Source: a virus
Reading direction: 5' to 3' (one strand)
DNA length: 64,000 nucleotides
Virus record (IMG/VR): IMGVR_UViG_3300046820_000903
Span: 18,292 to 82,291 of that record
A program made the translations under genes and the position numbers. Numbering within the stretch: the first letter of the stretch is position 1; each line of letters starts with the position of its first letter. A model generated the notes under the pieces. That model was given only the letters and a program-made list of their open reading frames with translations. It was not told the DNA's origin and did not search any database. Of this stretch, positions 37,171 to 61,761 are shown in pieces.

Positions 37171-37806
37171 TTATTTGCTGTCAGTGTGAACTGATCGTAA
37201 TACTTCTAGTATATGATGAAAGTGTGCAGTACGATCAGCTAAGCCAATTGTGCCACCGTTGATCTTTTTAGTGACTGTTGTTACATCTTCCTTGTCAGCC
37301 CATGTATTCAACTTGCGAGTATCCCAGAACCAACCTGCACTTAGTACAGCCACTGGGTTCTTGGCAACTTGATCTGGGTCTGCTACTAAGTCTAAGCCTA
37401 GTGCTTTACCACATGATTTGTAGTTGTCTTTACCTGTCAATTGAATTACACCGCGCCCGCGAAACTTGTAGCCTTCGCCTGATGCCTCATTGCCATTGCC
37501 CATACGGTCGCAATAGGCTCTGTTTGCAATCTTTTCTGGCTTACGTGCGTATTCGTCTGCAACACCTGCAAACTTCTTAGGCCAAAAAGCCAACAATGCT
37601 TTGGCTTGATAGTTTAAGTTTTCTTCTACTGCATTAAAGTTACCACTTTCGTGGGCAGTTTGTGCAATAAACATGGCCTGTCTTTCGGGCGTATTGATTT
37701 CAAAGTGTTCAAACGTTTCGTTTAGTCCTTCTAAGAACATAGACAAACGTTCTGACTTTGCCTGGGGCAAACATGCTTTTAACACATCCAAAGTTAATTC
37801 TGACAT
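37171..37806 (-). CDS. glycoside hydrolase family 19 endolysin
   Basis: AMFIAQTAHESGNF...EENLNY, GYKFRGRGVIQLTGKDNY, SAGWFW and TKKINGGTIGLADR. Confidence 0.92.
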   Translation of the reverse strand: MSELTLDVLKACLPQAKSERLSMFLEGLNETFEHFEINTPERQAMFIAQTAHESGNFNAVEENLNYQAKALLAFWPKKFAGVADEYARKPEKIANRAYCDRMGNGNEASGEGYKFRGRGVIQLTGKDNYKSCGKALGLDLVADPDQVAKNPVAVLSAGWFWDTRKLNTWADKEDVTTVTKKINGGTIGLADRTAHFHHILEVLRSVHTDSK

Positions 37807-37816
37807 AAATGTCTCC

Positions 37817-39124
37817 TTATTGTATGTGCTTATTTAACAAATCAGAGGTTCCAGGTAGCGTTTTACGCCAGTCTGTGCCACGTGTAGTGTCTAAAAAGTC
37901 CATTAATTCTACGTAACGCTTAACTGCTAGTATGTTTTCAAACTTACTGTCAAAGTGATCAATTAACCATTTGTGAATAGTTCTACCTACAGGTGTGTCC
38001 CGTGTAGCGTATAACTCTGCTAATTCTTCCTTAGCTGAACGTGGTAAACTCATAACGCTGTGCATAGCAGGAGCATCAACAAACTTAACTTGGAATGGTA
38101 CGCCTTGGCTGTGGACCCAATCTTCTGTTTCAAACATTGTATGTGTAGTGCTCATTTGTGTACAGCTTGTTAGTCTATGTAACTTAACAACGCCTTCTTT
38201 TTCGTACTCTTTAACTCGCTTAACGTTGCGTTGGAATGTGTCCCACGAACTTGTACGAATTAACTCAAAAGGTTCGTAAGCCGCATCAATGCTGCCGGCC
38301 AATTCAACATGCTTGAAGTGACTCCAACGCTGTGCTAATTTGTCGTTAATAACTGACAAGTTAGTATCGTAGTCTAAGTATACTTCTTTAGCACGACCTG
38401 ACGCAATAATACGATCTAGCATTTCGTCGTGTGCAGGAACAATCATTGGTTCCCCGCCTGTGATGTAGATATGTTCTAGTGTAGGTAGTAGTTCATCAAA
38501 CTTAGACCACCATATGTCAGTTTCCCACCAACGTACTTCTTTTGGATTAAACAGCTTGCCGTGTTCGTTGCGTTCTAGTTTAACTCTAGGATGACCAAAG
38601 CCCCAAGGCACTTCTAAATTATTATTGTTAAATCCAACCCAGTCTTCATACCATTGGTTTGAGTAGCTGGGTCCACAGTGAACACACTTTTGGTTACATA
38701 AGTTTCCAAAGCGTATGTCTAGTGTTGTTGGATTCCATTTGACATAGCCATTTTCGTCCATGTCTGCATTCATATAAGTGGCAGGACTTACTATGTTTGT
38801 GCTTGGATTACGGCGCTCCATGCTTTGTCTACGACTAGCATTAATGTTCTTTGGATCGCCACCTGTTGCGCTTTCACGCTCACTACAGCATGAGCACAAG
38901 TCATGCCACCCGCCTTGTGTTTTTACATCATTAATGCGAACTGACCTATGCCACTTACCATTGAGCCCTTGATTAGGCGTGTGTGTCATAATGTTCATTA
39001 ACTTGCCGTTCTCATCAAGAGCCATGCCCTCGTTCATTGTTCGACTGTTAGTTAATGCACATATCCTATAATCGCCAAGAGGGGTTATCATCAACCCCTG
39101 CCACGGCAGTCTACAAAAAGCCAT
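37817..39124 (-). CDS. radical SAM protein with N-terminal twitch/SPASM-like domain
   Basis: FCRLPW, CSCC, LDIRFGNLCNQKCVHC and ITGGEP. Confidence 0.85.
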   Translation of the reverse strand: MAFCRLPWQGLMITPLGDYRICALTNSRTMNEGMALDENGKLMNIMTHTPNQGLNGKWHRSVRINDVKTQGGWHDLCSCCSERESATGGDPKNINASRRQSMERRNPSTNIVSPATYMNADMDENGYVKWNPTTLDIRFGNLCNQKCVHCGPSYSNQWYEDWVGFNNNNLEVPWGFGHPRVKLERNEHGKLFNPKEVRWWETDIWWSKFDELLPTLEHIYITGGEPMIVPAHDEMLDRIIASGRAKEVYLDYDTNLSVINDKLAQRWSHFKHVELAGSIDAAYEPFELIRTSSWDTFQRNVKRVKEYEKEGVVKLHRLTSCTQMSTTHTMFETEDWVHSQGVPFQVKFVDAPAMHSVMSLPRSAKEELAELYATRDTPVGRTIHKWLIDHFDSKFENILAVKRYVELMDFLDTTRGTDWRKTLPGTSDLLNKHIQ

Positions 39125-39127
39125 TGT

Positions 39128-41758
39128 TTACTTTCGGGCTAAAAAGCCCTGAGAGTTACGCTTGTATCCTTCTGGGATTAGCTTTACTTGTTTATCCAAC
39201 ATACAGAAGTATTCGTTTTCCTTTAATTGTGCAGATGCGTTTACAAGTGCTTGATCAAAGTTTTCATTCTTTTGTTTGTTGTGAATAGTCCACATTGTGG
39301 CATACGCACGTTCTGGATTGTCTTTATACTGCTTTAGTAATTTCTTTTCTAAGTCTTGATCAAAGCCAGGAGGTGCGCTTTCTTTAACTTTTTTGTTGTC
39401 CTTCTTTTCAGGACGCTTGCCACCAGTTTCTTTTTCTAGACGTTGTAGTAATTCTTCATCACTGCCGCCACCCAGCTTGTCAAATGCTTTTTTAGCGCCT
39501 GCTTTGATAGTGTCAATAATACCTTCATTTACAGCAGGAGCCATTGACCTACGGCTTTCAGCCACTTGTTTGATTACAGCTTTAGCGGCTTGTGCTTGTT
39601 CTGGAGGTAACGTAGCAATTTTAGACTGTGTATATTGTTCTACTTTGTCATCGCCGCCTAGTTTCTCAGAGGCCATGTCCCATAGTTTTTCTACACCCTT
39701 CATGCCTAACTTTGCCGCACTATAAGCGCCATAAGCGGCCATTGGGATACCAAGTAATGGGCCTAAGATACCAACAATAGCTGGAGCACCTGCTGCCGCA
39801 ACAACACCTAATCCAAGACCGCCGGCAAACTTAGCCAATGCAGGAGCGTCTTCTTCTACACCACGTTCGCCAGGAACGCTGCCACGAAAGTTCTTTTGCT
39901 TGTCTAGTACAGCTCGCATCTTGGTCATAATACGATCAAATGCACGAGCATCTGTTAAAGCACGTAAGAACTCTTCTTGACGGCCAGCTTTCATAAAAGA
40001 CTTATAACGTCCGCCAACAAAGCGAGCTTCTGGATATTCTAATGTAATTGGCTCACCACCAACCATGATTTCAGCATCTTGCCCTTGTTCAACGGCTTTT
40101 AAAATGCTTAGTATGTTCTTACGGCCTTGTTCCGATTCCATATTTGCTTCCTTAATTTTTGTTACGTTTTCAACCTTAGGATCTATGCCTTGTTCTTTTT
40201 GGCTTAGCAAATAGTCCCAAACACTTGTTGTCATCATTTCTGCTTTGGCAATTTTTTCTTGCGCCCATTCTGGCAAGTTATCGTTGTCGCCAATTGTGTC
40301 CATTAGGCCGTTGACCGCTCGAGCCATGGTACGCAGATTGCTTTTGGCCATACCTGCTTCGTCATCGTATTCAGGATTACTGGCTTCAGTCATACTTTCA
40401 CCCATGCCAGCTAGATTCTGTTCTACTTGTTTAACCCATCCTGACACATCACTGCTACCGATTTCTTCTACATCGCCTACAAAGTCAGCAACTTCATCCA
40501 CTGCCGCTCCTACCTTTTCTGGGCCGTGTTTGGCCAATAGGTCTGTGCGTTGCATTAGAATACGACGAATAATGGCCTGTGCTACTGGTGAGTCTTCATC
40601 ACCAGGATTGTCCATCATGCCTTCCGCCACACCTTGTTCTAAGCTTTCGACAATTACGCCTAAGCCTTTATTACCTGTGCCTTCTTTATTTGGACCAAGA
40701 ATTTGAGTGACTCTGACTTTTTTACCGTCATGGGGACCACCGTTTACTGTAATTATATTACCTACTTGTCTATTAGGCTTAAGGTTAAGTTTAATCTCTT
40801 GCGGTGCAGAATTTTGTGGTTGTGCTGATTGTTGCGGAGGCTGTTCTTGCTTTTGTGCAGGTTTGCTACCCTTCTTCCACTCGTATACCTCGTCATTCAA
40901 TGAAGCTCTATATGCTAATACAAATTGTTTTTCTGACCCCGACCTGTAAACAAAGTTGTCAATTTTAGATATTTTAACTGCTTCTTTGGTTGCATTGTCA
41001 ATTGCTTGTTTTGCATTATAGCAGTCAGTTAATTCACAATACTTTGTAACCAAATCATACACATTAGTTGCCATGTACTCCATTGGAGAAATACTATCTC
41101 CGGTAGAAATTTCTATGTCGGCGGACCTAAGTCTAATTTTTAATCCGCCAGTGGCATCTGTTAGCGCCTTACCAGCATAATTAGCCCAGTAACCTGGCCC
41201 TTTAGCTTGTGCCAATGTTGGTAAACCTGCGCCAGCTACAGCGGCAGCTCCGGCACCCAAGCCTTTTAAGAATCCTCTACGGTCGATTTCTTCTAAACTG
41301 CCTTCCGCCACACCTTCAGCAGGCTTGTCTTTCCAAGGCTTCCACATACCGTGCTTGTGATTATCTACAATGTATAGTGTATGTGTGACAGAGCCGTCTT
41401 CATTCTTAGATTTTTCTACATCAACAACTTTTTTAGCACCCCATTCGTTCTTGTCAAACATGTATTCTTCATGGTCAGCAGTTGCTTCGTCTTGTGCCTG
41501 GATAACGTATAACTTGTTATACTCTTTACCGTTAGGAGCAGATCCTTCTTGGTCAACATACTTTACAGCACGTTTCTGTGTGAATGCTTTGTGTTGAGCT
41601 TGACGTTGTTGACTAATAGCATCTTCGTCATCTGCGGCCTGTTGAGCAGGGCTAGGACGTGGCTCGCTGGGAACTCGAGCCTTAGGTTTAGCATTTAGCG
41701 CCGCATAATAATCGACGTCGCTGTCAAAGTTGCGTGGATCTACTTCGTTGATTTTCAT
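39128..41758 (-). CDS. mosaic multi-module protein, probable head-internal polyprotein
   Basis: MKINE N-terminus; modules separated by VAE/LEE/MTE/IKE/VEE/VNE/VKE/LKE; internal Tat-like signal and a hydrophobic segment. Confidence 0.6.
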   Translation of the reverse strand: MKINEVDPRNFDSDVDYYAALNAKPKARVPSEPRPSPAQQAADDEDAISQQRQAQHKAFTQKRAVKYVDQEGSAPNGKEYNKLYVIQAQDEATADHEEYMFDKNEWGAKKVVDVEKSKNEDGSVTHTLYIVDNHKHGMWKPWKDKPAEGVAEGSLEEIDRRGFLKGLGAGAAAVAGAGLPTLAQAKGPGYWANYAGKALTDATGGLKIRLRSADIEISTGDSISPMEYMATNVYDLVTKYCELTDCYNAKQAIDNATKEAVKISKIDNFVYRSGSEKQFVLAYRASLNDEVYEWKKGSKPAQKQEQPPQQSAQPQNSAPQEIKLNLKPNRQVGNIITVNGGPHDGKKVRVTQILGPNKEGTGNKGLGVIVESLEQGVAEGMMDNPGDEDSPVAQAIIRRILMQRTDLLAKHGPEKVGAAVDEVADFVGDVEEIGSSDVSGWVKQVEQNLAGMGESMTEASNPEYDDEAGMAKSNLRTMARAVNGLMDTIGDNDNLPEWAQEKIAKAEMMTTSVWDYLLSQKEQGIDPKVENVTKIKEANMESEQGRKNILSILKAVEQGQDAEIMVGGEPITLEYPEARFVGGRYKSFMKAGRQEEFLRALTDARAFDRIMTKMRAVLDKQKNFRGSVPGERGVEEDAPALAKFAGGLGLGVVAAAGAPAIVGILGPLLGIPMAAYGAYSAAKLGMKGVEKLWDMASEKLGGDDKVEQYTQSKIATLPPEQAQAAKAVIKQVAESRRSMAPAVNEGIIDTIKAGAKKAFDKLGGGSDEELLQRLEKETGGKRPEKKDNKKVKESAPPGFDQDLEKKLLKQYKDNPERAYATMWTIHNKQKNENFDQALVNASAQLKENEYFCMLDKQVKLIPEGYKRNSQGFLARK

Positions 41759-43872
41759 TTTCTTAATACACTTTTCATAAACTGTGTGGCCATTGCTTGC
41801 GCTTCGCTAACTGGCTTCATGTGAGTACTTAGCCCGATACTTTCTTGGGCTGGTTGCTTACTAATATCATGGAATCCAAAGCGGTCTACCATTAGGTATG
41901 TACTGCCCACTTTCATAATATCGCCAACGCTCATGCTGGTGTGTCCTGTGTTGCTTTGATTGATTAGATCACGTGCTTCTCCACGTGGACTCCAGTTTTC
42001 ACCTTGCATCATTGAAAACACTTTGTCTGGATTAGTTTCACGTAGTGTACCAATTTGTACATGTGTTTGTTCCAGTGTTTCTGGTGTGGGCATTTGACCC
42101 TTCTTGGTCAACCAGTTGGCACCCATCATCATGTCACGGCCTGCTTCATCGTTCCAGTACCAAACTTCTGTGCTGCCTTCTGGGTAAGCATCAGACAAGC
42201 TGGAGTATTGTGTAGCCGCAGGTCCTGCTTCTGTTTGTAATTCACGCTCGCCAAAGTAGTTTAACATTTGACGGAAGCCTTCGCCATCGTTTAGTGTTTG
42301 TTGCATTATGGCCTTGCTTTCTGGCTTTAACTGATCAAACTTGCTTAGGATCTTGTTGGCTGTTTTAGCACTGATAGTAATGCTACTACCGTCGGCCAAG
42401 GTCATTGGCTGTGGCTTATCGTAGTCAGCTTGACGACGAATCTGCATGATAATGTTCTTGTCTGCTGATGCTTGATCAGCTGGTGTAGCTTCATCTTCTT
42501 CAGCTTCGGTTACCGGTGCCATACCGCCTACTTCACGATCTAGTTTGTCAGCAATCCATTGTACTGGATCACCTTCACGTGCTTTGGCAACACCATAAGG
42601 CATTTCACCACTGTTTAAATAATAATCAAATAAGGCTTCGTAAAATTCTGGATTATCATCAATTTCGCCGCCAGCTTTAAATTGTTTAAATGAATCTGCA
42701 AATTGATCTAAAATACTTTCTAATTCCGGATCAACAATTAGGCCTTCATTTAAATCAATTCCTAAATCTTCAGCAAATAATTCACCAATTTCGTTGTCAT
42801 CATCTGCGTCACGTTGTGCTTTATAACTTAGACGATCATAGTAGTGAAAGTGTAGATCTGTTTCTAAAGCTTGACTTAGTTCGCCGCCGGCTTTAAAGTG
42901 CTCTACAGCTTCTTCATTGTTGGCAATGATTCTGGCCAACTGTGGATCCATACGGTATTCAGCTTCTTTAACTTCGATGCCAGCTTGACGTAAAACAGCA
43001 ATGTTGTCATCGCCCAATTCTTCTTCGTCATCTAATTCCAATTGACCGTTCTTGTTAAACGTTACATTGGTTGTACCGCCTGTTTTGTCAAACTGTGGCT
43101 TAGGCGCAGAACTGGTAGCGTTGCCCATGTTGGGAGTATTGCCGCCTGCACGACTTGGAATAGTGCCTGTAGTACCAATTGTACCAAAGCCTTCGCTTAC
43201 GCTTTCATTTTGTATGCCTGTTGTATGTGGGTGACGTACATAATAAGCTTGACCGCTTGCACTGATATAGTGTGGTAGTCGTTGTCCGTCACCGTCCATA
43301 AACTCTAAGTCACGTGCGCTAATGCGTGTAATACGGTTGTCCATGTCATAAAGAATTAGAAACTTGCCGTTTTGGCTCATACGTGCTTGGTCATATACCT
43401 TCATACTACGTCCGTCGGCTGGTAAACCATATTGCTGGCGAGTATCTTGTCTAACACGATCTGTTTCTGCACGACGAATTTCATTTTGACGAGCATTATA
43501 AATTCTACGCTGTGTTTCACGTTCTGCTTCACGTTGACGAACTAGTTCTTTATAGTTAGGGCTAAAAATATCTGCCATGTGACGACCAACGCTGTATTCT
43601 GTGCCAGGATGACGATTCTGTCCTGGCGTACCTGTATTCTGAGCATGTGCCCCGCTCATTGCAACACCAGCGGCCATTGCTGCCGGAATAATCTTTCTGG
43701 CAACATGTTGTAGGATGTCTTTACCAGCTTCGCTTAGGTCACCTTCAACAACAACAATGGTGTCAAACGGGTCTTTAAACTGCTTGACCTGCTGAAGCAC
43801 AATGCCTTCATGTAGACGACTGCTAATTTGCTTAACAACACGACCTTCACGGACTAATTGAATACGAATCAT
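41755..43872 (-). CDS. mosaic multi-module protein with C-terminal YodL-like domain
   Basis: Modules bounded by LHE/LSE/VSE/VKE/LNE/VTE/IQE-type sites; GHTSMSVGDI...YLMVDRFGF resembles YodL. Confidence 0.6.
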   Translation of the reverse strand: MIRIQLVREGRVVKQISSRLHEGIVLQQVKQFKDPFDTIVVVEGDLSEAGKDILQHVARKIIPAAMAAGVAMSGAHAQNTGTPGQNRHPGTEYSVGRHMADIFSPNYKELVRQREAERETQRRIYNARQNEIRRAETDRVRQDTRQQYGLPADGRSMKVYDQARMSQNGKFLILYDMDNRITRISARDLEFMDGDGQRLPHYISASGQAYYVRHPHTTGIQNESVSEGFGTIGTTGTIPSRAGGNTPNMGNATSSAPKPQFDKTGGTTNVTFNKNGQLELDDEEELGDDNIAVLRQAGIEVKEAEYRMDPQLARIIANNEEAVEHFKAGGELSQALETDLHFHYYDRLSYKAQRDADDDNEIGELFAEDLGIDLNEGLIVDPELESILDQFADSFKQFKAGGEIDDNPEFYEALFDYYLNSGEMPYGVAKAREGDPVQWIADKLDREVGGMAPVTEAEEDEATPADQASADKNIIMQIRRQADYDKPQPMTLADGSSITISAKTANKILSKFDQLKPESKAIMQQTLNDGEGFRQMLNYFGERELQTEAGPAATQYSSLSDAYPEGSTEVWYWNDEAGRDMMMGANWLTKKGQMPTPETLEQTHVQIGTLRETNPDKVFSMMQGENWSPRGEARDLINQSNTGHTSMSVGDIMKVGSTYLMVDRFGFHDISKQPAQESIGLSTHMKPVSEAQAMATQFMKSVLRK

Positions 43873-43873
43873 T

Positions 43874-46147
43874 TTATTTTACCTTTTTCCAATCTATGCT
43901 AGGCACAGTACTGTTTTTATTAACGAAATCTGGCTCTTTGCTTTTGCTACCTGTTAACTCTACAGGCTCCTTGCCTGTGATAGCTTTAACAGCGTCTCTG
44001 ATCATTTTATTTTCTTCATCTGTATAAGCATAGGCAAACGGACCAGCATTTGGTCCCAGCACTACTTTGTCACCGCCGCGGTTACCAGCCACGTGAATAG
44101 CATAACGATAAAAGCCATAACCAGGATCAGTGTTTAAATGGAACATTCCTTTAATAATACTGGCCTGCTCTGGATTCATTTTATCTTCTTTAAGATAATG
44201 GTGAATACCTTCTACAATACGTTGTGCTTGCTTTACACGATGCGTATACAATTCCAATGTCGTCATACGCTGTGAGCACTCACGCATGAAGTTAGACTCT
44301 TCATCTGTAATACCACGCGATCCACGACCACCTTTACTGCGAATACGCTTTAATTCATTGTATGCCGCAACAATAGTATTTAATGTATTTGTCAACTGCT
44401 TGATGTTCTCAGCGGCACGACGGAAGCTGCCACCGTGTTCTACTTTAAGGTCTGCGGCCATTGCGTCTGCTTCGCGGCGTGCTTTATCACGTAACCCGCC
44501 TAGAGTATAACGACCTGCGCCACCCAATACTAACACTTCTGTGTCTGTCATTGGTTTATCTCGATCCAAGCGATAGATAACATTTTTATGATCTAATACA
44601 TGTGCTTCTTTTGCAATCTTTGTATTACGGCGATTATTCATCCACTCTTTATATTGACCAAATTCATGTGGACTTAATGAAACATTATTTTTCACTTTCC
44701 AAACAATTCGCTGAATTGTTTCTGGAATATCTTTATCAATTTTACTGAAATAATCACGCATGGTAGTAAGTTTAGTTGGATCTTTTGCATCCGTATTACC
44801 TGCAAAATAATCACGCATGGTAGCTAAACTAGATTCAAATACACCTTGCCCAATGTAAGCAGGACCTGGAGTGTACTTTTGTCCCACTGCGGCACGTGCG
44901 GCTCTACGCCTGGCTCGACGACTACGACCACGTGTCATTGGATAAGCCACTACAGCAATGTCTGCACTTGTTGTGGCACCCGGAGACGCACCACCTTCGT
45001 CTTCCATGACATTGCCTTCTGCTAGACCATGCTTCTTCATCAAACTATAAATCTGACTGCCTGGCTTGACTGGTTGTCCAGATTTTAAAAACGCATCAAT
45101 CATGCCCAATTCTTGTTGCTTGCGTTGTGCAGACGTATCAACAGCAGGTGTTGCATTAGTGTTGCTATCGTCGTCACTGATGTCGTTGGGCTCATAATAC
45201 CAGCCCATGCCCGGATCATCACTGCCAGTTTTTGCTGGATTATCAAACTTGAAATAGGCAATTTGTGTTTTGCCCCAGTAGCCTTTGAATTCGCCAGTGG
45301 CATCATTCATGTCTTCTCGATCAAAATGATCTGCTTCAAATCGACCAAAGAAATCTATACTACGACGATATGACTCTGGCTTGGGATACTTGTAAGGATC
45401 TTCTCCATTGTCATCATCTCTGCCGTGCCCATTTGAAAATTCTTCTAAGTCTTTTTTGGCAAAGTTATCATTGTGGAAACTACCAACAATGTACCATTTT
45501 AAATCATGATCAACATCATTGTGTTCTACGCCTATTACGTTGACATTGTAACCTCGATCGTCAAACCAACTGTTGGCATAACCCACTAGATTTTGTTTGG
45601 CTTTTTCGCCACGTGTATCAATGTTAAATCCATCGTTGCTGACATCAAATTCTTCAAACCAATCATCACCAATGATATCAGCAAGCTCGTCATCTGAGTA
45701 CCAACGTCCTGAATCACCACTATCACCTGGTCCAGGTGCGAATTCTTTTAAAGTACTTTCGCTAACACCATCTCCGTGGCTGTCATCATGGTGTCCAGCA
45801 ACATGATGCTCGCCTGGCATCTCTACTTCATCGCGTTTGACATCAGTGGTTTCACTGGCACCAGCAGCCTTGGGCCACTCTAGGCCTTGTCCCACTTGAG
45901 CATCAGCATCGTAGTTGTGCGGCTCTTGTGCTTGTTGATGTCCTAAAAATATACCGCCTTTACCAACAGCCAAATCACCTTGCTGGCTTAGTCCATGCCC
46001 ACCACCTGGTGGTCGTGCGCCAACACGAGCTGTGCTGGCCAAGGTAGACGCCGCGCTTGGTGGTCCACTTGGGCCCGACGGACCACCTAGTGATGCTCCA
46101 CCCCCAGTAGCGGCCATCTCATTTAATGTTAATTCGCGAAGTTTCAT
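43874..46147 (-). CDS. mosaic multi-module protein, probable head-internal polyprotein
   Basis: MKLRELTLNE N-terminus; LKE/LEE/LAE/VME/VFE/IVE junctions; ATAAATA late motif upstream. Confidence 0.6.
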   Translation of the reverse strand: MKLRELTLNEMAATGGGASLGGPSGPSGPPSAASTLASTARVGARPPGGGHGLSQQGDLAVGKGGIFLGHQQAQEPHNYDADAQVGQGLEWPKAAGASETTDVKRDEVEMPGEHHVAGHHDDSHGDGVSESTLKEFAPGPGDSGDSGRWYSDDELADIIGDDWFEEFDVSNDGFNIDTRGEKAKQNLVGYANSWFDDRGYNVNVIGVEHNDVDHDLKWYIVGSFHNDNFAKKDLEEFSNGHGRDDDNGEDPYKYPKPESYRRSIDFFGRFEADHFDREDMNDATGEFKGYWGKTQIAYFKFDNPAKTGSDDPGMGWYYEPNDISDDDSNTNATPAVDTSAQRKQQELGMIDAFLKSGQPVKPGSQIYSLMKKHGLAEGNVMEDEGGASPGATTSADIAVVAYPMTRGRSRRARRRAARAAVGQKYTPGPAYIGQGVFESSLATMRDYFAGNTDAKDPTKLTTMRDYFSKIDKDIPETIQRIVWKVKNNVSLSPHEFGQYKEWMNNRRNTKIAKEAHVLDHKNVIYRLDRDKPMTDTEVLVLGGAGRYTLGGLRDKARREADAMAADLKVEHGGSFRRAAENIKQLTNTLNTIVAAYNELKRIRSKGGRGSRGITDEESNFMRECSQRMTTLELYTHRVKQAQRIVEGIHHYLKEDKMNPEQASIIKGMFHLNTDPGYGFYRYAIHVAGNRGGDKVVLGPNAGPFAYAYTDEENKMIRDAVKAITGKEPVELTGSKSKEPDFVNKNSTVPSIDWKKVK

Positions 46148-46152
46148 AGATA

Positions 46153-46215
46153 TATTTATTCGTTTGGTTCGGTATAACTGACTGTATTACTTATCATTAT
46201 CTTAGCCGTTAAATA
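46153..46215. promoter_or_regulatory. divergent late-promoter region
   Basis: ATAAATA on the minus strand (46153-46159) and TTAAATA on the plus strand (46209-46215) between divergent operons. Confidence 0.55.
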
Positions 46216-47724: not shown

Positions 47725-49245
47725 ATGGACGCGGTTATTGTTTCGGATTGTTCAAACGGCGAAAACAATACATTCTTATATCGTTATATTGGGCCATATA
47801 AAATTGCCCACGTGTGTCGCAGCCAAGGATACTCAGCACAGGTTATAGACTTTGTAATGAGCATGACGTACGACACACTACTAGGATACCTACGTAAGTT
47901 TGTTGACAAAGAAACCAAAATGGTAGCACTCAGTGCTACCTTTCTTTGTCAAGTGCCTGCTAAACAAAGCGATGGCTCCTGGGCTCGTGCCCCAGAGCAT
48001 GTAATACGAGCCTTACGTCAAATTAAAATAGAGTTCCCACAAGCAAGATACGTGCTAGGCGGCTATATGAGTGAACACTTGGACGGCTTTGGATTCATTG
48101 ACTGCCGTGTACTCAGCAATGCCGAAGCCATTACAGCCGAATTAATCAATTACCTTGCCGGTGTGGGCGAAGAACCACAGTATAAACTACAAAAGCCAAG
48201 TTGGAAGCGGGCCGCTGGACTTGAAAAGATGTATTATGCTCCTCGCAATGCCGTATACAATATAGAAACAGACAACTTCAGCTTCCATGAACAGGATTGT
48301 ATAGTAGAACAAGAAACATTACCACTGGAAGTAAGTCGTGGCTGTGTGTTTAAGTGTAAATTCTGTAATCATGAGAACCTAGGACGTCCCAAATTAGATT
48401 ATCTTCGTAGCATGGACTGTATCCGTGAGGAACTGGTCAACAACTATGAACGTTGGGGTGTTACAAACTACAATATACTATGCGACACGTTTAACGATAC
48501 TGAAATTAAACTACGCAGGTGGCATGAAATGGTCACAAGCTTGCCATTTAAAATTAAATTTGCCGCTTACATACGTGTGGACTTGATACATCGTTTCCCG
48601 GACATGGCACACTTGTTGCAAGAAGGCGGCTTACATGCGGCATTCCACGGACTTGAAAGCCTACATCCAGACGCAAGTCGCATTGTAGGTAAAGCCTGGA
48701 GCGGTCGACATGCTCGCGAATACATTCCTGAGTTGTATCACAATACGTGGGGTGGCCAAGTACATCAGCATCTTAACTTTATTGTGGGATTACCTGGCGA
48801 CAGCATAGAGTCCATGGAAAGCACAGCTGATTGGATAATACAGAATCAGCTACAAAGTGCCAGCTTTGGGGAGTTGTATCTGGTCAAGGGTAGCTTTAGA
48901 CATCTAAGCGAGTTTGAACGCAATGCTGAACAATACGGATACACCTTTGATGACACCAAAATACAGGATGCTCGTGTAGAAAGCGGCGGCGGTAGTTATA
49001 ATAAGTATTGGAAGCTGGACTATATTGACTTTGAAAAAGCCCGGCTTGTGGCACGTTCGCTGAACAGACGCATAGGTTCCCATGTTGGTCCAATGAATTG
49101 GACTATACTAAGTGCGTTATCAGTGGGCATGCCAGAGTCAAAAATAAATGTTAAACGTATACAGTTTAGTCTGGGTACATACGCCACACATAAATTGGCA
49201 TTTATTCAACGATATTTGACCAAATTAAATGGCATAAGTGCCTAA
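47725..49245 (+). CDS. radical SAM protein with B12-binding-like N-terminal domain
   Basis: LEVSRGCVFKCKFC, CDTFND, GLESL and FIVGLPGD; N-terminal YIGPYKIA...VIDF. Confidence 0.8.
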   Translation: MDAVIVSDCSNGENNTFLYRYIGPYKIAHVCRSQGYSAQVIDFVMSMTYDTLLGYLRKFVDKETKMVALSATFLCQVPAKQSDGSWARAPEHVIRALRQIKIEFPQARYVLGGYMSEHLDGFGFIDCRVLSNAEAITAELINYLAGVGEEPQYKLQKPSWKRAAGLEKMYYAPRNAVYNIETDNFSFHEQDCIVEQETLPLEVSRGCVFKCKFCNHENLGRPKLDYLRSMDCIREELVNNYERWGVTNYNILCDTFNDTEIKLRRWHEMVTSLPFKIKFAAYIRVDLIHRFPDMAHLLQEGGLHAAFHGLESLHPDASRIVGKAWSGRHAREYIPELYHNTWGGQVHQHLNFIVGLPGDSIESMESTADWIIQNQLQSASFGELYLVKGSFRHLSEFERNAEQYGYTFDDTKIQDARVESGGGSYNKYWKLDYIDFEKARLVARSLNRRIGSHVGPMNWTILSALSVGMPESKINVKRIQFSLGTYATHKLAFIQRYLTKLNGISA

Positions 49246-49253
49246 GGAGATTT

Positions 49254-49991
49254 ATGAGTTACGTTATAGCAACTCTTGTATTAACACACATCACCATTGC
49301 ATGTGTAACATTGTATCTACACCGCAGTCAAGCACACAGAGGTGTTACGTTTCATCCTGCGGTAGCGCATTTAATGCGTTTCTGGCTGTGGATGACAACA
49401 GGACAAATTACCAAGCAATGGGTGGCAGTACACCGCAAGCATCACAGATTTACAGAAGTAGAAGGTGATCCACACAGTCCACACGTATTTGGCTTTTGGC
49501 GTGTGCTGTTTAAAGGTGCGTTTCTATATCACTCTGCTAGTAAAGACGCAGACATGGTAAAACAATATGGTGCAGGCACACCAGATGATTGGATGGAACA
49601 AAATATATACACCAAGCACAGCCGTATTGGTATCATGCTTATGTTACTGATAGACTTAGTGGTGTTTGGTCTGCCGGGTTTATTAATATGGGGTATTCAA
49701 ATGATATGGATTCCATTCTGGGCCGCAGGTGTTATTAACGGCTTAGGTCACTGGTGGGGATATAGAAATGGCGAAACTAAAGATCACAGCAGAAACATTG
49801 TTCCTTGGGATATTATTGTTGGTGGGGAATGCCTTCATAATAACCATCATTTGGATCCTGGTAATCCTCGACTAAGCCGTCGTTGGTTTGAATTTGATAT
49901 AGGCTGGCTTTACATAAAGTTGCTGTGTTCGTTTAGATTGGCAACACTTAAACCATCTGTAGCAAATCCTTCAGTAACTGAATCCAAGTAA
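49254..49991 (+). CDS. membrane fatty-acid (delta-9 acyl-CoA type) desaturase
   Basis: His boxes HRSQAH, HRKHH and HNNHH; several TM segments; WFEFDIGW. Confidence 0.92.
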   Translation: MSYVIATLVLTHITIACVTLYLHRSQAHRGVTFHPAVAHLMRFWLWMTTGQITKQWVAVHRKHHRFTEVEGDPHSPHVFGFWRVLFKGAFLYHSASKDADMVKQYGAGTPDDWMEQNIYTKHSRIGIMLMLLIDLVVFGLPGLLIWGIQMIWIPFWAAGVINGLGHWWGYRNGETKDHSRNIVPWDIIVGGECLHNNHHLDPGNPRLSRRWFEFDIGWLYIKLLCSFRLATLKPSVANPSVTESK

Positions 49992-51279: not shown

Positions 51280-53322
51280 TTATTTGCTTGTAGCTCTATA
51301 TGTACCATCCCAATTGGCTGGTAGTCCTTCGTTCATACGCTCTAACATATTTTCATAATAGTGTCGGAGTTCATTATCTTCTTTGATAAGCTTTTCGCAT
51401 GCCTTGATAGCACGAGCCCAATCACCGCGATAGTATGCAGTTAGATAGATATCGTGCTGTGTAGTGTTGGTTTCGCCAAGTGTAAAGATCTTAACACCTT
51501 GCGTCTTGCCTTTAACAGCAATACAATCTAACTCGACGACCGGGTACTCATCCTTGACCAGTTCTGCTGTACGTTGTCCTAAAACAATCTTGACACCATA
51601 CGGCTTAGACTGGCCCTCGAGTCGGCTCGCCAAATTAACACCGTCGCCAAGACAAGTATAGTCAAAGCGTTGATCACTACCCATATTGCCCACCACAACG
51701 GCGGCAGTATTAATTCCCAAACCCATACCAAAGGCAGGAATGCCTTCTGCTGTAACTTCTGCATTAAACGCATCTAAGCTTCCCATCATTTCAAGTGCAG
51801 TCTTGACAGCCATGTGTGCATGACGAGCTTCGTCAACTGGTGCATTCCAGAATGCCATTTGTGCATCGCCAATGTACTTGTCAAGTGTTCCGTTATTGTC
51901 AATGATCTTCTTTGTCATTGCTGTCATATAACGGTTCATAATCTTAGTAAGTCCCTGTACGTCCTTACCATAGTGTTCGGAGATCGTAGTAAATCCACGA
52001 ACGTCTGTGAACATGATACTGAGTTCACGTTCATCGCCACCCAGCTGTAATAGCTCGGGATTCTTTTGTAGCTTGGCAACTAACGCTGGACTCAGGTAAG
52101 TGCCAAACTGTTTCTTGATCTGTTGCTTTTGCTTGAACTCTTGTACGAATCGTGCAAACAATGCATGACCGTATAGCAGTACTGCGGCAAAAACAACATA
52201 GTAGATGTCCCATAGTTGACTGTAGTTTGCCCACAAGTATAAGCCACCTTGAACAACACCATATACTAGGCCACCTAGAACAAATAGTGCGGCCCAGATT
52301 GGCACACGTGGCATGGCAAAGATAACAATAGCCGCAATGCCGATGATGGTCAACAATTCAACCATACCAGCCCAAGCAGGACGAGTAGGTGTGTTACCAT
52401 CGATAAGTGTTTGTATAGCTTGTGCTTGTAAGTTATGTGCCCACTGTTCACCACGCGGTGTGCCAATGATACCACCAAGACCTTCTACACCTAAACCCAG
52501 TACAACAATTTTACCCTTAAGATTCAAGTCTTTGCGTGACAGTTCACTTAGTTCATAACGCTTGAATTCTTTGTTCCAACGCAACCATACACGACCGTTG
52601 GCATCAGTTTCCACAATAGGCTGTCCAGCAATGCGTACTTTTTCTACACCTGCTTCGCTCATCTTCATTTGATAGCTTTGCTCGCCTGTGTATACACGTA
52701 ATGCTTCAATTGGCAAGCTTGGATAGTATTCTTTGTTTACTGTAACAACCAAGGGCATACGACGAACAACACCGTCAATTTCAGGAGCCGCTACAGTTGT
52801 ACCAACACCCTTGGCACCTTGAGCTAGCTCTGGACGTGGACTTAGCGCACCTGGCCATGAGTACAACCAAGTGTAAGGATCGCCACCCATTACAGCTACG
52901 CCACGACGAACTGCATCAGGCTTTTTGTTTTGTGTAGTAGGAGTTTGTGCAATAACACTGGGAGTTTTATTTAGAACTTTAGCAAGCTCTGCATCACCGC
53001 CTAGTCTATCCTTTTCAGTCATAAGCACAGGCACAACAATGGTGGCCGCACCTAGTTCATGAATACGTTGAATAGCTTGTGCAATTTCTCGTCTGTCCCA
53101 AGGCCATTGCCCCAGGCGTTCCATTGACTTTTCACCAATATCGATTACAACCACTTCTTTGGATTGTTCTACAGCATCGCTGGCAAGTAGCATGTCAAAG
53201 CCTTTAAGCTGAATGCTTTCTACTGGTGCTGGATTTTGGATTTTTAATAGGATTAGTAGTGCGGCAGTGATTACTACCCATGCTACACTTAATGGTCCTG
53301 GTATAAGTTTTAGTATCTTCAT
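51280..53322 (-). CDS. CHASE2-domain membrane adenylate/guanylate cyclase (class III)
   Basis: GQWPWDR, DGVVRRMPL, three TMs, FTDVRGFT, DKYIGDA, GIGIN-like, YTCLGDGVNLASRLEG and VKGK. Confidence 0.93.
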   Translation of the reverse strand: MKILKLIPGPLSVAWVVITAALLILLKIQNPAPVESIQLKGFDMLLASDAVEQSKEVVVIDIGEKSMERLGQWPWDRREIAQAIQRIHELGAATIVVPVLMTEKDRLGGDAELAKVLNKTPSVIAQTPTTQNKKPDAVRRGVAVMGGDPYTWLYSWPGALSPRPELAQGAKGVGTTVAAPEIDGVVRRMPLVVTVNKEYYPSLPIEALRVYTGEQSYQMKMSEAGVEKVRIAGQPIVETDANGRVWLRWNKEFKRYELSELSRKDLNLKGKIVVLGLGVEGLGGIIGTPRGEQWAHNLQAQAIQTLIDGNTPTRPAWAGMVELLTIIGIAAIVIFAMPRVPIWAALFVLGGLVYGVVQGGLYLWANYSQLWDIYYVVFAAVLLYGHALFARFVQEFKQKQQIKKQFGTYLSPALVAKLQKNPELLQLGGDERELSIMFTDVRGFTTISEHYGKDVQGLTKIMNRYMTAMTKKIIDNNGTLDKYIGDAQMAFWNAPVDEARHAHMAVKTALEMMGSLDAFNAEVTAEGIPAFGMGLGINTAAVVVGNMGSDQRFDYTCLGDGVNLASRLEGQSKPYGVKIVLGQRTAELVKDEYPVVELDCIAVKGKTQGVKIFTLGETNTTQHDIYLTAYYRGDWARAIKACEKLIKEDNELRHYYENMLERMNEGLPANWDGTYRATSK

Positions 53323-53328
53323 TTTGTT

Positions 53329-53357
53329 AGTATAACAGAACAAGTGGACAAAGTCAA
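53329..53357 (-). promoter_or_regulatory. sigma70-type promoter, leaderless transcript
   Basis: TTGACT-17 nt-TATACT with TGn extension, 6 nt before the cyclase ATG. Confidence 0.7.
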
Positions 53358-55904: not shown

Positions 55905-56258
55905 ATGATGCATTGGGGATACCATTTGATGTTGGATTGTAGCGGTTGCAAACGCATTGACAGCCGTGAGAACATTTATAACTTTACCAAAGATATGGTC
56001 AAGCGCATTGACATGACAGCACACGGCGAACCTGTTATTGAGTACTTGTTGGAAGGTGATCCTAAGCAAGGCTATAGCATGATGCAGTTGATTACAACCA
56101 GCAACATCTGCGGCCACTTTATGGAACTTGACGGTACTGCTTATTTTGACGTATTCAGTTGTAAGAAGTTTGATATTGAAACGGCCAAGTCAGTTGTTCA
56201 AGAATACTTTGATCCTGCCAAGATCAGAGTCAACTACATTACTCGTCACGCAGATTGA
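55905..56258 (+). CDS. speD: S-adenosylmethionine decarboxylase proenzyme
   Basis: WGYHLMLDCSGC, GYS...LITTSNICGHF and YFDVFSCKKFD; class 1B-type pyruvoyl enzyme. Confidence 0.8.
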   Translation: MMHWGYHLMLDCSGCKRIDSRENIYNFTKDMVKRIDMTAHGEPVIEYLLEGDPKQGYSMMQLITTSNICGHFMELDGTAYFDVFSCKKFDIETAKSVVQEYFDPAKIRVNYITRHAD

Positions 56259-60232: not shown

Positions 60233-60391
60233 TTAACTATCGTTTTGGCTTGGACCGTTTGCTTTTTTGTTTTCCTTAGTCCTCACCCTTTCTTTACTTT
60301 CACTTAACATCTTTTCCGTCGCTGGACAAGTCCAGCGCGGCGGCGCTGAAGTCTTGGGCGTTAGCCGGGGTTTGTGTCTGAACCAACTCAT
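60233..60391 (-). CDS. small basic protein overlapping the csgG 3' end
   Basis: MSWFRHKPRLTPK..., with GGAG about 8 nt upstream of the ATG. Confidence 0.4.
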   Translation of the reverse strand: MSWFRHKPRLTPKTSAPPRWTCPATEKMLSESKERVRTKENKKANGPSQNDS

Positions 60392-61274
60392 CTTTCTTCT
60401 CCGCTTTTTCAATTTGCGCTGGCACTGGCAGTGCCTTTGCAACAGGCTTGTCCTCTACGAAAGCCCAGTGCCCTTTACGGGCACCTTCATGAATTGTGTT
60501 TACCACTGCGGCTTGAACAGCAATGTCAATAGCTTTGTTGATACTTTCGTTGATACTGCCGCCAATTTCGCCTTCAAGTGCAGTTGCGTTTGCTCCTAAG
60601 GCTGTACCATCACCCACGAATCGTAGCAGAGTAACTTTATCCATATAACTTAAAACTGTTTTAGTTACTGTTGTTGTTGTTAAGATTTCTCCTGTGTTAA
60701 CACTGACTGTTCGTAGTGTAACTGTAACCGTATCGCTTTGATATTGTGTGCTGGCACCAATGCCAAATATACGCACACCAGATCCACCTGTTAGTGTGTT
60801 ACTGTCATAGCCAACAATGCCGCCTTCAACAATGATACCAGCAAACATCATTGGAGGTAAAGGTTTAGCATCTTTGCCTTGATATTGTTCGCGAGCTTGA
60901 CGAATCATTTGACGCTCTTTAATCAGGTTGTCTAAGCCTACACGTTCTAGTACTGTAAACCAACGTGCATCACCGGCTTCTTGTAAACTCTTGATTAGAT
61001 AGTTTTCACCACCTTGTGTTACTGCTGAACTTAAACTAGCAATGTTTGGCATTGACTTACGTTGTCCAGTCTTATCTGTAAAACCATAGACTGCAACAGG
61101 GATAGGGCCGCCTACTGGTGGTGCTAGTTTGTTTTGTTCTTTCTTTAAGAACTTGCTAGATTCTATAACGGGTTCGTCAAACTGTTTGCCAGTGATTTTC
61201 TCACGTAGTGCTGAACTTGAAGCACAACCTGTTAATAGTGCTACTACGGCCAAGGATAATAATGTCTTTTTCAT
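60300..61274 (-). CDS. csgG: curli secretion channel lipoprotein CsgG
   Basis: Lipobox LTGC, VAVYGFTDKTGQRK, SSAVTQG, WFTVLERVGLDNLIKERQMIR and EGGIVGYDSNTLTGGSG. Confidence 0.92.
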   Translation of the reverse strand: MKKTLLSLAVVALLTGCASSSALREKITGKQFDEPVIESSKFLKKEQNKLAPPVGGPIPVAVYGFTDKTGQRKSMPNIASLSSAVTQGGENYLIKSLQEAGDARWFTVLERVGLDNLIKERQMIRQAREQYQGKDAKPLPPMMFAGIIVEGGIVGYDSNTLTGGSGVRIFGIGASTQYQSDTVTVTLRTVSVNTGEILTTTTVTKTVLSYMDKVTLLRFVGDGTALGANATALEGEIGGSINESINKAIDIAVQAAVVNTIHEGARKGHWAFVEDKPVAKALPVPAQIEKAEKKDELVQTQTPANAQDFSAAALDLSSDGKDVK

Positions 61275-61284
61275 ACTTTAATCC

Positions 61285-61761
61285 TTAAATCTTAAATGCC
61301 GCGTATGGCATAACTAATTCTGTATAGTTGTTGGGGTTAATCATGTCACTGATTCTAACAACAATATTGTTTCCAACAATTTTCCATGTAATGTTTTGTC
61401 CACCAATGTCAATATCGCCACATGGGCCACCAACACTTAACGGTGTACATGCTGGAGCACCAGTGCTTGAGCCAAATAAGCTGTCACTGATACGTTTTGC
61501 TAGTTCACTGTAGATACGTGTTTCTAGATTAGCTTGGAATCTAGCTTGCGGAGTGTTTGCCGCATCACGCTCAGCCGCTGCCTTGATAGCATCTGCGGCT
61601 TGTCTATTCTTGTCTTTTTGCTGATCTTCTAACTGTTTAATAGTCAAGACGTGACTACTGTAGCCAATACCACTAAAGGCTGGACTACTAAAACTATGTT
61701 GAAGTTCTGCGGCATTTAATGCACCGCAAACCATCATTAATACTAACGTTATCTTTTTCAT
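61285..61761 (-). CDS. csgF: curli assembly protein CsgF
   Basis: Signal peptide, then AELQHSFSSPAFSG (CsgF N-terminal FxNPxFGG-like) and FQANLETRIYSELAKRISDSLFG; adjacent to csgG. Confidence 0.8.
   Translation of the reverse strand: MKKITLVLMMVCGALNAAELQHSFSSPAFSGIGYSSHVLTIKQLEDQQKDKNRQAADAIKAAAERDAANTPQARFQANLETRIYSELAKRISDSLFGSSTGAPACTPLSVGGPCGDIDIGGQNITWKIVGNNIVVRISDMINPNNYTELVMPYAAFKI

Follow-up and report, generated by a model that had tools for sequence, protein, structure and literature searches.

Three mosaic genes of an uncultured T4-related phage as candidate head-internal cargo polyproteins with recombination joints

We analysed a window of 64,000 nucleotides (bases 18292-82291 of the 82,291-bp IMG/VR virus contig IMGVR_UViG_3300046820_000903), which carries on its minus strand three long open reading frames (ORFs), here called ORF A, ORF B and ORF C, which an earlier note on this DNA had proposed to encode protease-cleaved cargo of the virion. 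The three coupled ORFs of 876, 705 and 757 amino acids (aa) exist as claimed, all on the minus strand: one nucleotide (nt) separates the stop of ORF A from the start of ORF B, ORFs B and C overlap as ATGA, and the array is translationally coupled; the starts MKINE of ORF C and MKLRELTLNE of ORF A are likewise present. From sequence comparison we consider it fairly probable that these genes specify T4-style head-internal cargo, built as polyproteins whose modules are jointed by recombination. The features of the locus are collected in Table 1.

Table 1. Features of the locus, in window positions. A slash in a protein string marks a putative cut; pLDDT, predicted local distance difference test; Tat, twin-arginine translocation; Sec, general secretory pathway.
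Feature	Position	Strand	Remarks
ATAAATA, T4-late-promoter-like motif, AATAAATA	46153..46159	-	5 nt ahead of the ORF A ATG
ORF A	43874..46147	-	757 aa, starts MKLRELTLNE; mosaic
Leader MKLRELTLNE of ORF A, T4-capsid-targeting-like	46118..46147	-	LNE10 kept in 7/7 spanning alignments
Degenerate third box copy	45013..45030	.	GLAEG, LAE377/G of ORF A; 78% identical to reference
ORF B	41755..43872	-	705 aa, starts MIRIQLVREG; 3-4 modules, most conserved of the three
48-aa N-terminal leader of ORF B, to LSE48/A	43729..43872	-	E48 invariant in 71 sequences
Sec-type signal-like segment of ORF B, AGKDILQHVARKIIPAAMAAGVAMSGAHA/Q	43642..43728	-	read from sequence; directly past LSE48
ORF C	39128..41758	-	876 aa, starts MKINEV; mosaic, about nine modules
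18-nt joint box copy 1	41299..41316	.	GVAEG, ORF C residues 149-153; exact repeat of copy 2
ORF C module 2, residues 153-379	40622..41302	-	begins with Tat signal; present/absent between boxes
Internal Tat signal, ORF C residues 158-185, DRRGFLKGLGAGAAAVAGAGLPTLAQA	41204..41287	-	TIGR01409, 20.2 bits
18-nt joint box copy 2	40618..40635	.	GVAEG, ORF C residues 376-380
Most widely shared ORF C module, residues 380-458	40385..40621	-	covered by 142/147 subjects; pLDDT 80-90 over 390-452
Hydrophobic helical hairpin module, ORF C residues 640-685	39704..39841	-	read from sequence; after VEE636/D
Radical-SAM gene	37817-39124	-	435 aa; begins 3 nt past the ORF C stop
Endolysin, glycoside-hydrolase-19-type	37171-37806	-	next after the radical-SAM gene

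Mosaic homologues of ORFs A-C

The homologues on which the mosaicism counts are based were taken from a large metagenomic protein collection, and numbered 560 for ORF C, 276 for ORF A and 190 for ORF B. Most of those of ORFs A and C match 8-30% of the query only, at 60-90% identity. An exhaustive HMMER search with ORF C returned 2438 cluster representatives (clusters at 50% identity) at E ≤ 0.001, of which 1051 at 1e-10 and 176 at 1e-30, and the ends of the matched stretches recur near residues 145-162, 372-388, 449-466, 527-540, 629-643 and 738-746. For ORF A, the coverage by homologues changes in steps near LKE135, LEE236, LAE377, VFE438 and AKE514, and the breakpoint peaks include residues 132 and 229, which lie 3 and 7 residues from the Glu of LKE135 and LEE236, respectively. 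Breakpoints of ORF B fall at about residues 223-227 and 541-548, and a group of its homologues share just the first ~225 residues, followed by different tails. The description of all three proteins as strings of unrelated modules, given in the earlier note, holds for ORFs A and C, as their partial matches indicate, and less well for ORF B, which is largely collinear. In relatives, the shared modules are fused to Zeta-toxin, ParB_N, TonB_C and GP88 domains.

Apart from the module boundaries, ORF A contains an exact 19-nt direct repeat (44748-44766 and 44805-44823, 57 nt apart), which encodes a duplicated TMRDYF peptide.

Placement and specificity of the joints

All 16 junction strings that had been named beforehand are found in the proteins. 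The motif [ILVM]xE occurs 18 times in ORF C, 11 in ORF B and 12 in ORF A, corresponding to 2.05, 1.56 and 1.59 sites per 100 aa, and the enrichment that had been expected over the rest of the proteome did not materialise, the density being unraised in ORFs A-C. What exceeds chance is the placement of the sites at breakpoints and not their density. In ORF C, 7 of the 9 breakpoint peaks lie at most 5 residues from the Glu of an [ILVM]xE. An all-against-all comparison of the family (352 proteins) yielded 1878 breakpoint calls, reduced to 1229 once contexts more than 60% alike were dropped; 590 of these (48%) fall within ±3 residues of such a Glu, in comparison with 12.7% of random positions, and 315 (26%) within ±1 residue, in comparison with 5.7%. 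The proposal that modules are shuffled, with boundaries at [ILVM]xE followed by G/A/S, is borne out by this comparison.

Breakpoint enrichment was 3.78-fold for [ILVM]xE and rose to 5.4-fold when G/A/S follows. Replacing Glu in position P1 turned the enrichment into depletion, with 0.59-fold for [ILVM]xD, 0.68-fold for [ILVM]xQ and 0.78-fold for [ILVM]xK, while [DEKR]xE was close to unity (0.95-fold) and the reversed motif gave 1.67-fold. In a logo aligned on any Glu near a breakpoint, P3 is V/L/I/M in 53% of cases vs 20% for other Glu residues, P4 is Gly in 24%, P2 is Ala in 20% and P1' is G/A/S in 48%, so that the consensus at breakpoints reads G-V-A-E/[GAS]. The literal GVAEG makes up 48 of the 590 junction sites, the others being varied strings of the same pattern. 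This consensus matches the specificity type of the T4 prohead protease gp21, which cuts after Glu in L/I-X-E and whose processing in T4 is blocked by Asp in place of Glu (PMC9026906, available text), rather than the S/A-X-E or A-X-E that the accessible portions of the sources give for phiKZ and SPN3US; the corresponding [AGS]xE is weakly enriched here (1.37-fold), as opposed to 3.8-fold for [ILVM]xE. In alignments that span a site, the motif is retained at 0.99 for LSE48 and 0.92 for LAE377, where the background for any Glu is 0.55-0.74.

The AlphaFold2 model of ORF C (mean pLDDT 60.8) is made of confident blocks at residues 30-140, 390-452, 541-622, 650-740 and 790-876, and the segments between blocks, with pLDDT below 50, contain VAE152, VAE379, MTE458, IKE537, VEE636 and VNE745. 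In the model of ORF B (mean pLDDT 65.8), short dips at 298-306, 376-379 and 450-468 contain VKE303, LNE376 and VTE456.

The commonest joint recurs as DNA. In ORF C the two box copies agree in all 18 nt and form a direct repeat with a spacing of 681 nt; a contig of run X7 joins base 40617 to base 41299, skipping 681 nt with 18 shared letters, and one protein (P0002) is without the same 227 residues between the boxes. This is a natural module deletion of 681 nt, mediated by the box and lying exactly between its two copies. At the third copy, in ORF A, the coverage by homologues drops from 121 to about 58 (residues 375-383). In related loci, 15 of the 24 GVAEG sites with distinct flanks are spelled GGTGTGGCGGAAGGC, in ORFs where GTG serves 19% of Val and GCG 11% of Ala codons. 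Scanning IMG/VR for this 15-mer revealed at least 160 copies in at least 128 loci. Among the matches listed, an open frame translates 145 of 160 copies as GVAEG, and 99 of the 160 have Gln ahead of the box. In this listing, neighbouring copies are spaced 150-615 nt apart, in all 32 cases by a multiple of 3, and few flanks recur (138 different sequences on the left, 137 on the right). Moreover, the sequence information falls to background directly outside CAA plus the box. Because conservation collapses in this way and the flanks are distinct, the commonest joint is a discrete element of 15-18 nt, common to otherwise unrelated modules and best explained as a recombination point.

The loose ends of metagenome contigs coincide with joints only in part. 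A second joint in such contigs, from 44900 to 46129 (side 27), was dropped, its support being too weak.

Leaders, export signals and genomic context

The leader of ORF A reads MKLRELTLNE/M and that of ORF C MKINE/V, which is shorter than the T4 one; ORF B has VRE9/G plus the 48-aa leader ending in LSE48/A, for which the AlphaFold model gives a small beta-beta-alpha-beta unit with pLDDT of about 76. The first 20 residues include [ILVM]xE in 67 of 94 distinct N-termini of the family and in 29 of 95 control ORFs taken from the rest of the contig; for the first 12 residues the figures are 47 of 94 and 16 of 95. The leader forms of the family include MRAKEFIAE, MRAHEFITE and MKFFKEIKNPVTE, and many resemble the T4 capsid targeting sequence MKTYQEFIAE (PMC8442874).

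A head protease of the type expected to act on such sites is encoded in the lineage, since two of the five related records, all of them fragments, contain a Peptidase_S77 match above cut-off (92.5 and 87.2 bits). In one of them (G005) the protease gene sits in the T4 gene order, that is portal, protease, scaffold and capsid protein, and the capsid protein, 65% identical to that of phage Phosso, shows YLTE/T ahead of its conserved core.

The motif ATAAATA, reported earlier ahead of the array, is real: it lies 5 nt before ORF A and is unique in the contig, with a single copy over both strands of the window vs 16.3 ± 3.7 expected, and again only this copy in the whole 82,291 bp. The exact full T4 motif TATAAATA was also looked for and not found. 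Related loci totalling 712 kb contain 98 ATAAATA copies, and for 65 of these an ORF of 60 aa or more starts no further than 40 nt away. In one relative (G003), 17 listed ORFs are preceded by the motif, among them four of 1,466-2,806 aa (unannotated here) and two small ORFs with T4-type leaders that adjoin the head protease gene.

Some further observations concern this motif. In related loci (L003-L056) and in the window (46148-46159, minus strand), many ORFs with leaders have ATAAATA 5-7 nt ahead of their ATG, and between the two no Shine-Dalgarno sequence is visible; at this distance, if the motif acts as -10 element in a late promoter of T4 type, the mRNAs would be leaderless or nearly so. 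Contigs of runs X2 and X4 match the window up to 46160, just upstream of the motif, and then diverge, so that the unit of promoter plus operon occupies different upstream contexts. Furthermore, in loci L008-L011, L021-L023 and L049, basic ORFs of 121-123 aa starting MRAKEFIAER or MRINELITEM are found 5 nt after ATAAATA, and these resemble the small internal proteins of T4 in size and leader.

ORF C harbours a Tat signal deep within the protein. TIGR01409 (NCBIfam) matches with its score above the cut-off of 16.7 bits and over model positions 1-29 of 29, and the Pfam model TAT_signal (PF10518) gives 21.7 bits, just below its cut-off of 22.7. The signal starts at residue 158 of 876, hence away from the N-terminus, and would become N-terminal only after a cut at VAE152/G or LEE157/I. 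The cassette ...xE/GSLEE[IV]DRRGFLKG... occurs in 15 distinct contexts, ORF C and 14 relatives, and is always internal, its start falling at residues 73-640 and each time 2-3 residues past an [ILVM]xE; a sixteenth match to the regular expression was spurious. All 4 relatives scanned pass the TIGR01409 cut-off, and the signal is followed by a TonB/TolA C-terminal domain in one relative and by a Zeta-toxin-type kinase in another. With the cassette as tblastn query, none of 50,697 phage records was matched at E ≤ 1. Since a Tat signal is known to work only from an N-terminus, its conservation at an internal position is indirect evidence that the site ahead of the buried signal would be cut.

In ORF B, the invariant LSE48/A is followed by a putative Sec-like segment, read by eye and also written KIIPAAMAAGVAMSGAHA/Q, in which P63, A64, A65, A68, G69 and A71 are invariant. 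In the hairpin region of ORF C, the helices at 650-669 and 673-700 are modelled with pLDDT of 69-93.

As for the source of this DNA, the contig is 25% complete according to CheckV, which implies a genome of near 330 kb. The nearest relatives of its DNA polymerase, at 42-48% identity, are cultured T4-related jumbo phages of 350-490 kb, namely Sinorhizobium phage Phosso, Agrobacterium phage Atu_ph07, Vibrio phage 2.275.O and 350-kb E. coli phages. The locus is nearly complete in 3 public runs from 2 studies (word share of at least 0.91), labelled as freshwater metagenomes. Downstream, the radical-SAM gene and the endolysin may be on one late transcript with ORFs A-C. Elsewhere in the window the phage carries the curli secretion genes CsgG and CsgF (60300-61761, minus strand) and a CHASE2-adenylate cyclase (51280-53343, minus strand), the latter ~40% identical to those of Pelagibacter phage HTVC008M and Methylophilales phage Melnitz, together with auxiliary genes for a second radical-SAM protein, a fatty-acid desaturase and an S-adenosylmethionine decarboxylase (47725-49991 and 55905-56258, plus strand).

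Head-internal cargo and alternative explanations

By analogy, a polyprotein version of the T4 internal-protein system appears to be the most economical reading of these data, and along its lines we infer late transcription, packaging, cleavage, injection and export of the ORF A-C products. The three genes would form one late operon in a T4-related phage from freshwater with a genome of roughly 330 kb, and the T4-type capsid-targeting leader of each protein would direct its entry into the prohead core. There, a gp21-family prohead protease would cut after Glu in the G-[VLIM]-x-E/[GAS] linkers between folded modules, giving about 7-10 fragments of 3-24 kDa per protein; computed for a cut at every junction-supported site, the fragments would span 3.5-24 kDa, and some are acidic and some basic. 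The fragments would remain with the DNA and then enter the next host. That of ORF C residues 153-379 would begin with the Tat signal and that of ORF B from residue 49 with the Sec-like signal, and such signal-bearing pieces could be re-addressed to the envelope by the host's own translocons. Modules would be gained, lost and swapped by recombination at the (Q)GVAEG box of 15-18 nt. The polyprotein model that had been put forward earlier is supported in part: shuffling, leaders, the late-type motif, the protease of relatives and the internal Tat signal speak for it, simple motif enrichment does not.

The textbook example of protein injection along with phage DNA is given by the T4 internal proteins, which are single and small. 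IPI, IPII, IPIII and Alt of T4, with their capsid targeting sequence and gp21 processing, are the closest known system. As in these proteins, a short N-terminal leader here runs to a hydrophobic-x-Glu, the junctions fit the L/I-X-E of gp21 as the available text of PMC9026906 gives it, the genes lie behind a late-promoter-like motif, a gp21-family protease is found in the lineage, and hypervariable cargo follows a conserved leader (PMC3012670). Unlike the T4 proteins, which are single, small and cut once beside the leader (PMC8442874), ORFs A-C are 705-876 aa long with several internal sites at joints. Their commonest joint is an invariable DNA box, some of the sites are followed by export signals, and no module is homologous to a T4 internal protein; moreover, tblastn found no match for them in cultured phages. 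In the giant phages phiKZ, 201phi2-1 and SPN3US, which have processed head, inner-body and ejection proteins, many head proteins are also cut after Glu, by a diverged gp21 homologue, and long propeptides are cut at several sites (PMC9026906 and PMC10052503, in the portions available). However, those cuts remove propeptides and leave one mature fragment, and the same portions describe no polyprotein of shuffled modules. Polyvalent proteins (Iyer et al. 2017, PMC5512222) are likewise large and multidomain; the prediction for them is packaging and delivery together with the DNA, possibly followed by processing into separate effectors. Their processing is attributed to a zincin-like peptidase domain of their own, whereas the joints here fit a prohead protease, and the polyvalent proteins carry known conflict domains (MuF, ParB, ART, methylase, zincin peptidase), none of which was found in ORFs A-C by Pfam, PHROGs and NCBIfam; some relatives have a single ParB_N or Zeta_toxin domain.

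Several results weigh against head-internal cargo. The density of [ILVM]xE lies within the range of the other 103 ORFs of the contig, and some sites are poorly retained in spanning alignments (VNE745 0.26, VAE152 0.44, LNE376 0.49), the picture being mixed in view of the well-kept ones. ORF B has many full-length collinear homologues, down to 38% identity. Peptidase_S77 was not found on the phage's own contig, an estimated 25% fragment, nor in the other 3 of the 5 related fragments. Contigs from RNA libraries overlap parts of ORFs A-C, with strand and transcript start not given. The coincidence of sites with low-confidence segments is modest, with 11 of 18 sites in ORF C, where 40% of residues are low, and 4 of 11 in ORF B, where 24% are; in addition, the low stretch 147-388 of ORF C rests on 2-4 aligned homologues and may reflect a shallow alignment rather than disorder. 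Pfam, PHROGs and NCBIfam scans of ORFs A-C recovered the Tat signal only, and neither megablast with the locus nor tblastn with ORFs A-C gave a match in the 50,697 phage records. The models of ORF C and ORF B had no match in PDB at E ≤ 0.001 by Foldseek, and VIA-align wide, run on whole models of more than 400 residues, reached best Z values of 6.3 (ORF C) and 5.4 (ORF B), which are usual background. Finally, recombination at the box contributes to breakpoint clustering and could explain it by itself; however, GVAEG is a small part of the junction sites, and the box leaves without account the other 542, the scarcity of P1 Asp, Gln and Lys, the leaders and the buried Tat signal.

The searches also bear on the label of effectors given to the products in the earlier note, which is not shown, since no recognisable effector domain or fold turned up in ORFs A-C with Pfam, PHROGs, NCBIfam and the fold searches. 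ESM Atlas gave no usable match for ORF A residues 515-757, and BFVD returned uncharacterised proteins of uncultured phages only, plus weak cyanophage rows. A relative bearing DUF6321 (P0100) matches 502 cultured marine phage records; this lead was set aside. The one gene inspected, which in Synechococcus phage ACG-2014f lies between the terminase genes, encodes a Lys-rich protein with neither a T4-type leader nor GVAEG joints.

The leader, the late promoter motif and the protease-type sites apply equally to a disposable, scaffold-like filler of the prohead core (compare T4 gp22, gp67 and gp68), loaded by its leader, chopped and expelled before DNA packaging, with nothing delivered. In T4 the core proteins are cleaved to several pieces, most of which exit the head (PMC9026906, available text), and the lack of an effector domain in ORFs A-C is in line with such a role. 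We regard this explanation as unlikely: extreme mosaicism and module turnover are unexpected for a scaffold that determines size, the head module of G005 has a separate scaffold-like gene, relatives join the same modules to Zeta-toxin, ParB_N, TonB_C and GP88 domains, and export signals directly past the sites would have no obvious role in debris.

It seems to us similarly improbable that ORFs A-C are ordinary multidomain late proteins, neither packaged nor cut, in which GVAEG-like strings are flexible linkers or recombination boxes and the likeness to gp21 sites is incidental. The box at nucleotide level does show a role in DNA, and the unenriched motif density also agrees with uncut proteins, but the sites other than GVAEG are varied in spelling and still share a hydrophobic-x-Glu followed by a small residue, Asp, Gln and Lys are depleted at P1, the leaders end in the same motif, and the Tat signal is conserved 73-640 residues inside the proteins even though such a signal is known to need an N-terminal position. 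Envelope-directed precursors acting late in the producing cell, cut by a phage or host protease and exported as Tat/Sec pieces without ever being injected (for instance in lysis timing, superinfection exclusion or receptor masking), are very unlikely in our view, for the Tat and Sec-like signals, the hydrophobic hairpin, the apparent co-transcription with an endolysin two genes downstream and the TonB/TolA C-terminal domain after the Tat signal in relatives are outweighed by T4-type leaders that point to capsid loading, by the lack of an export signal in most modules, and by gp21 itself, which in T4 belongs to the prohead core and cleaves on assembled proheads (PMC9026906, available text).

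Within the reading of ORFs A-C as head-internal cargo polyproteins, a more specific idea is put forward tentatively. The sequence CAA-GGTGTGGCGGAAGGC (QGVAEG) might be a universal joint, at once a DNA recombination point and a head-protease site, where cutting unmasks Tat or Sec signals and injected proteins are re-exported to the periplasm; such a joint would be shared by a large clade of giant phages that are uncultured and related to T4. The 'His boxes' of T-even tail-fibre genes are a known case of short conserved motifs at which variable segments recombine. Compared with these, the box described here is an exact 15-18-nt sequence in predicted head-cargo genes, recurs in over 100 contexts and specifies, in addition, a site of protease type. 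The literature searched describes no head polyprotein jointed by protease sites, no fixed DNA joint and no injected phage protein with a masked Tat signal, nor a capsid targeting sequence in cyanophages or jumbo phages, and neither 'polyprotein' nor 'prohead protease' occurs in a 2026 review of jumbo phages. Re-export of injected proteins to the periplasm, a route described for no phage in this literature, is likewise no more than possible in our estimate.

If the cargo reading is true, giant phages of a large group that is widespread in the environment put their injected cargo together combinatorially (more than 2,400 protein clusters at 50% identity hold relatives of ORF C), and one short sequence links gene shuffling to proteolytic release, part of the cargo being re-exported to the envelope by the host. 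It would also provide a testable rule to predict which proteins of metagenomic phages are delivered by the virion, delimit a large pool of small modules, and show a design, taken from nature, by which T4-type capsids could be loaded with several proteins.

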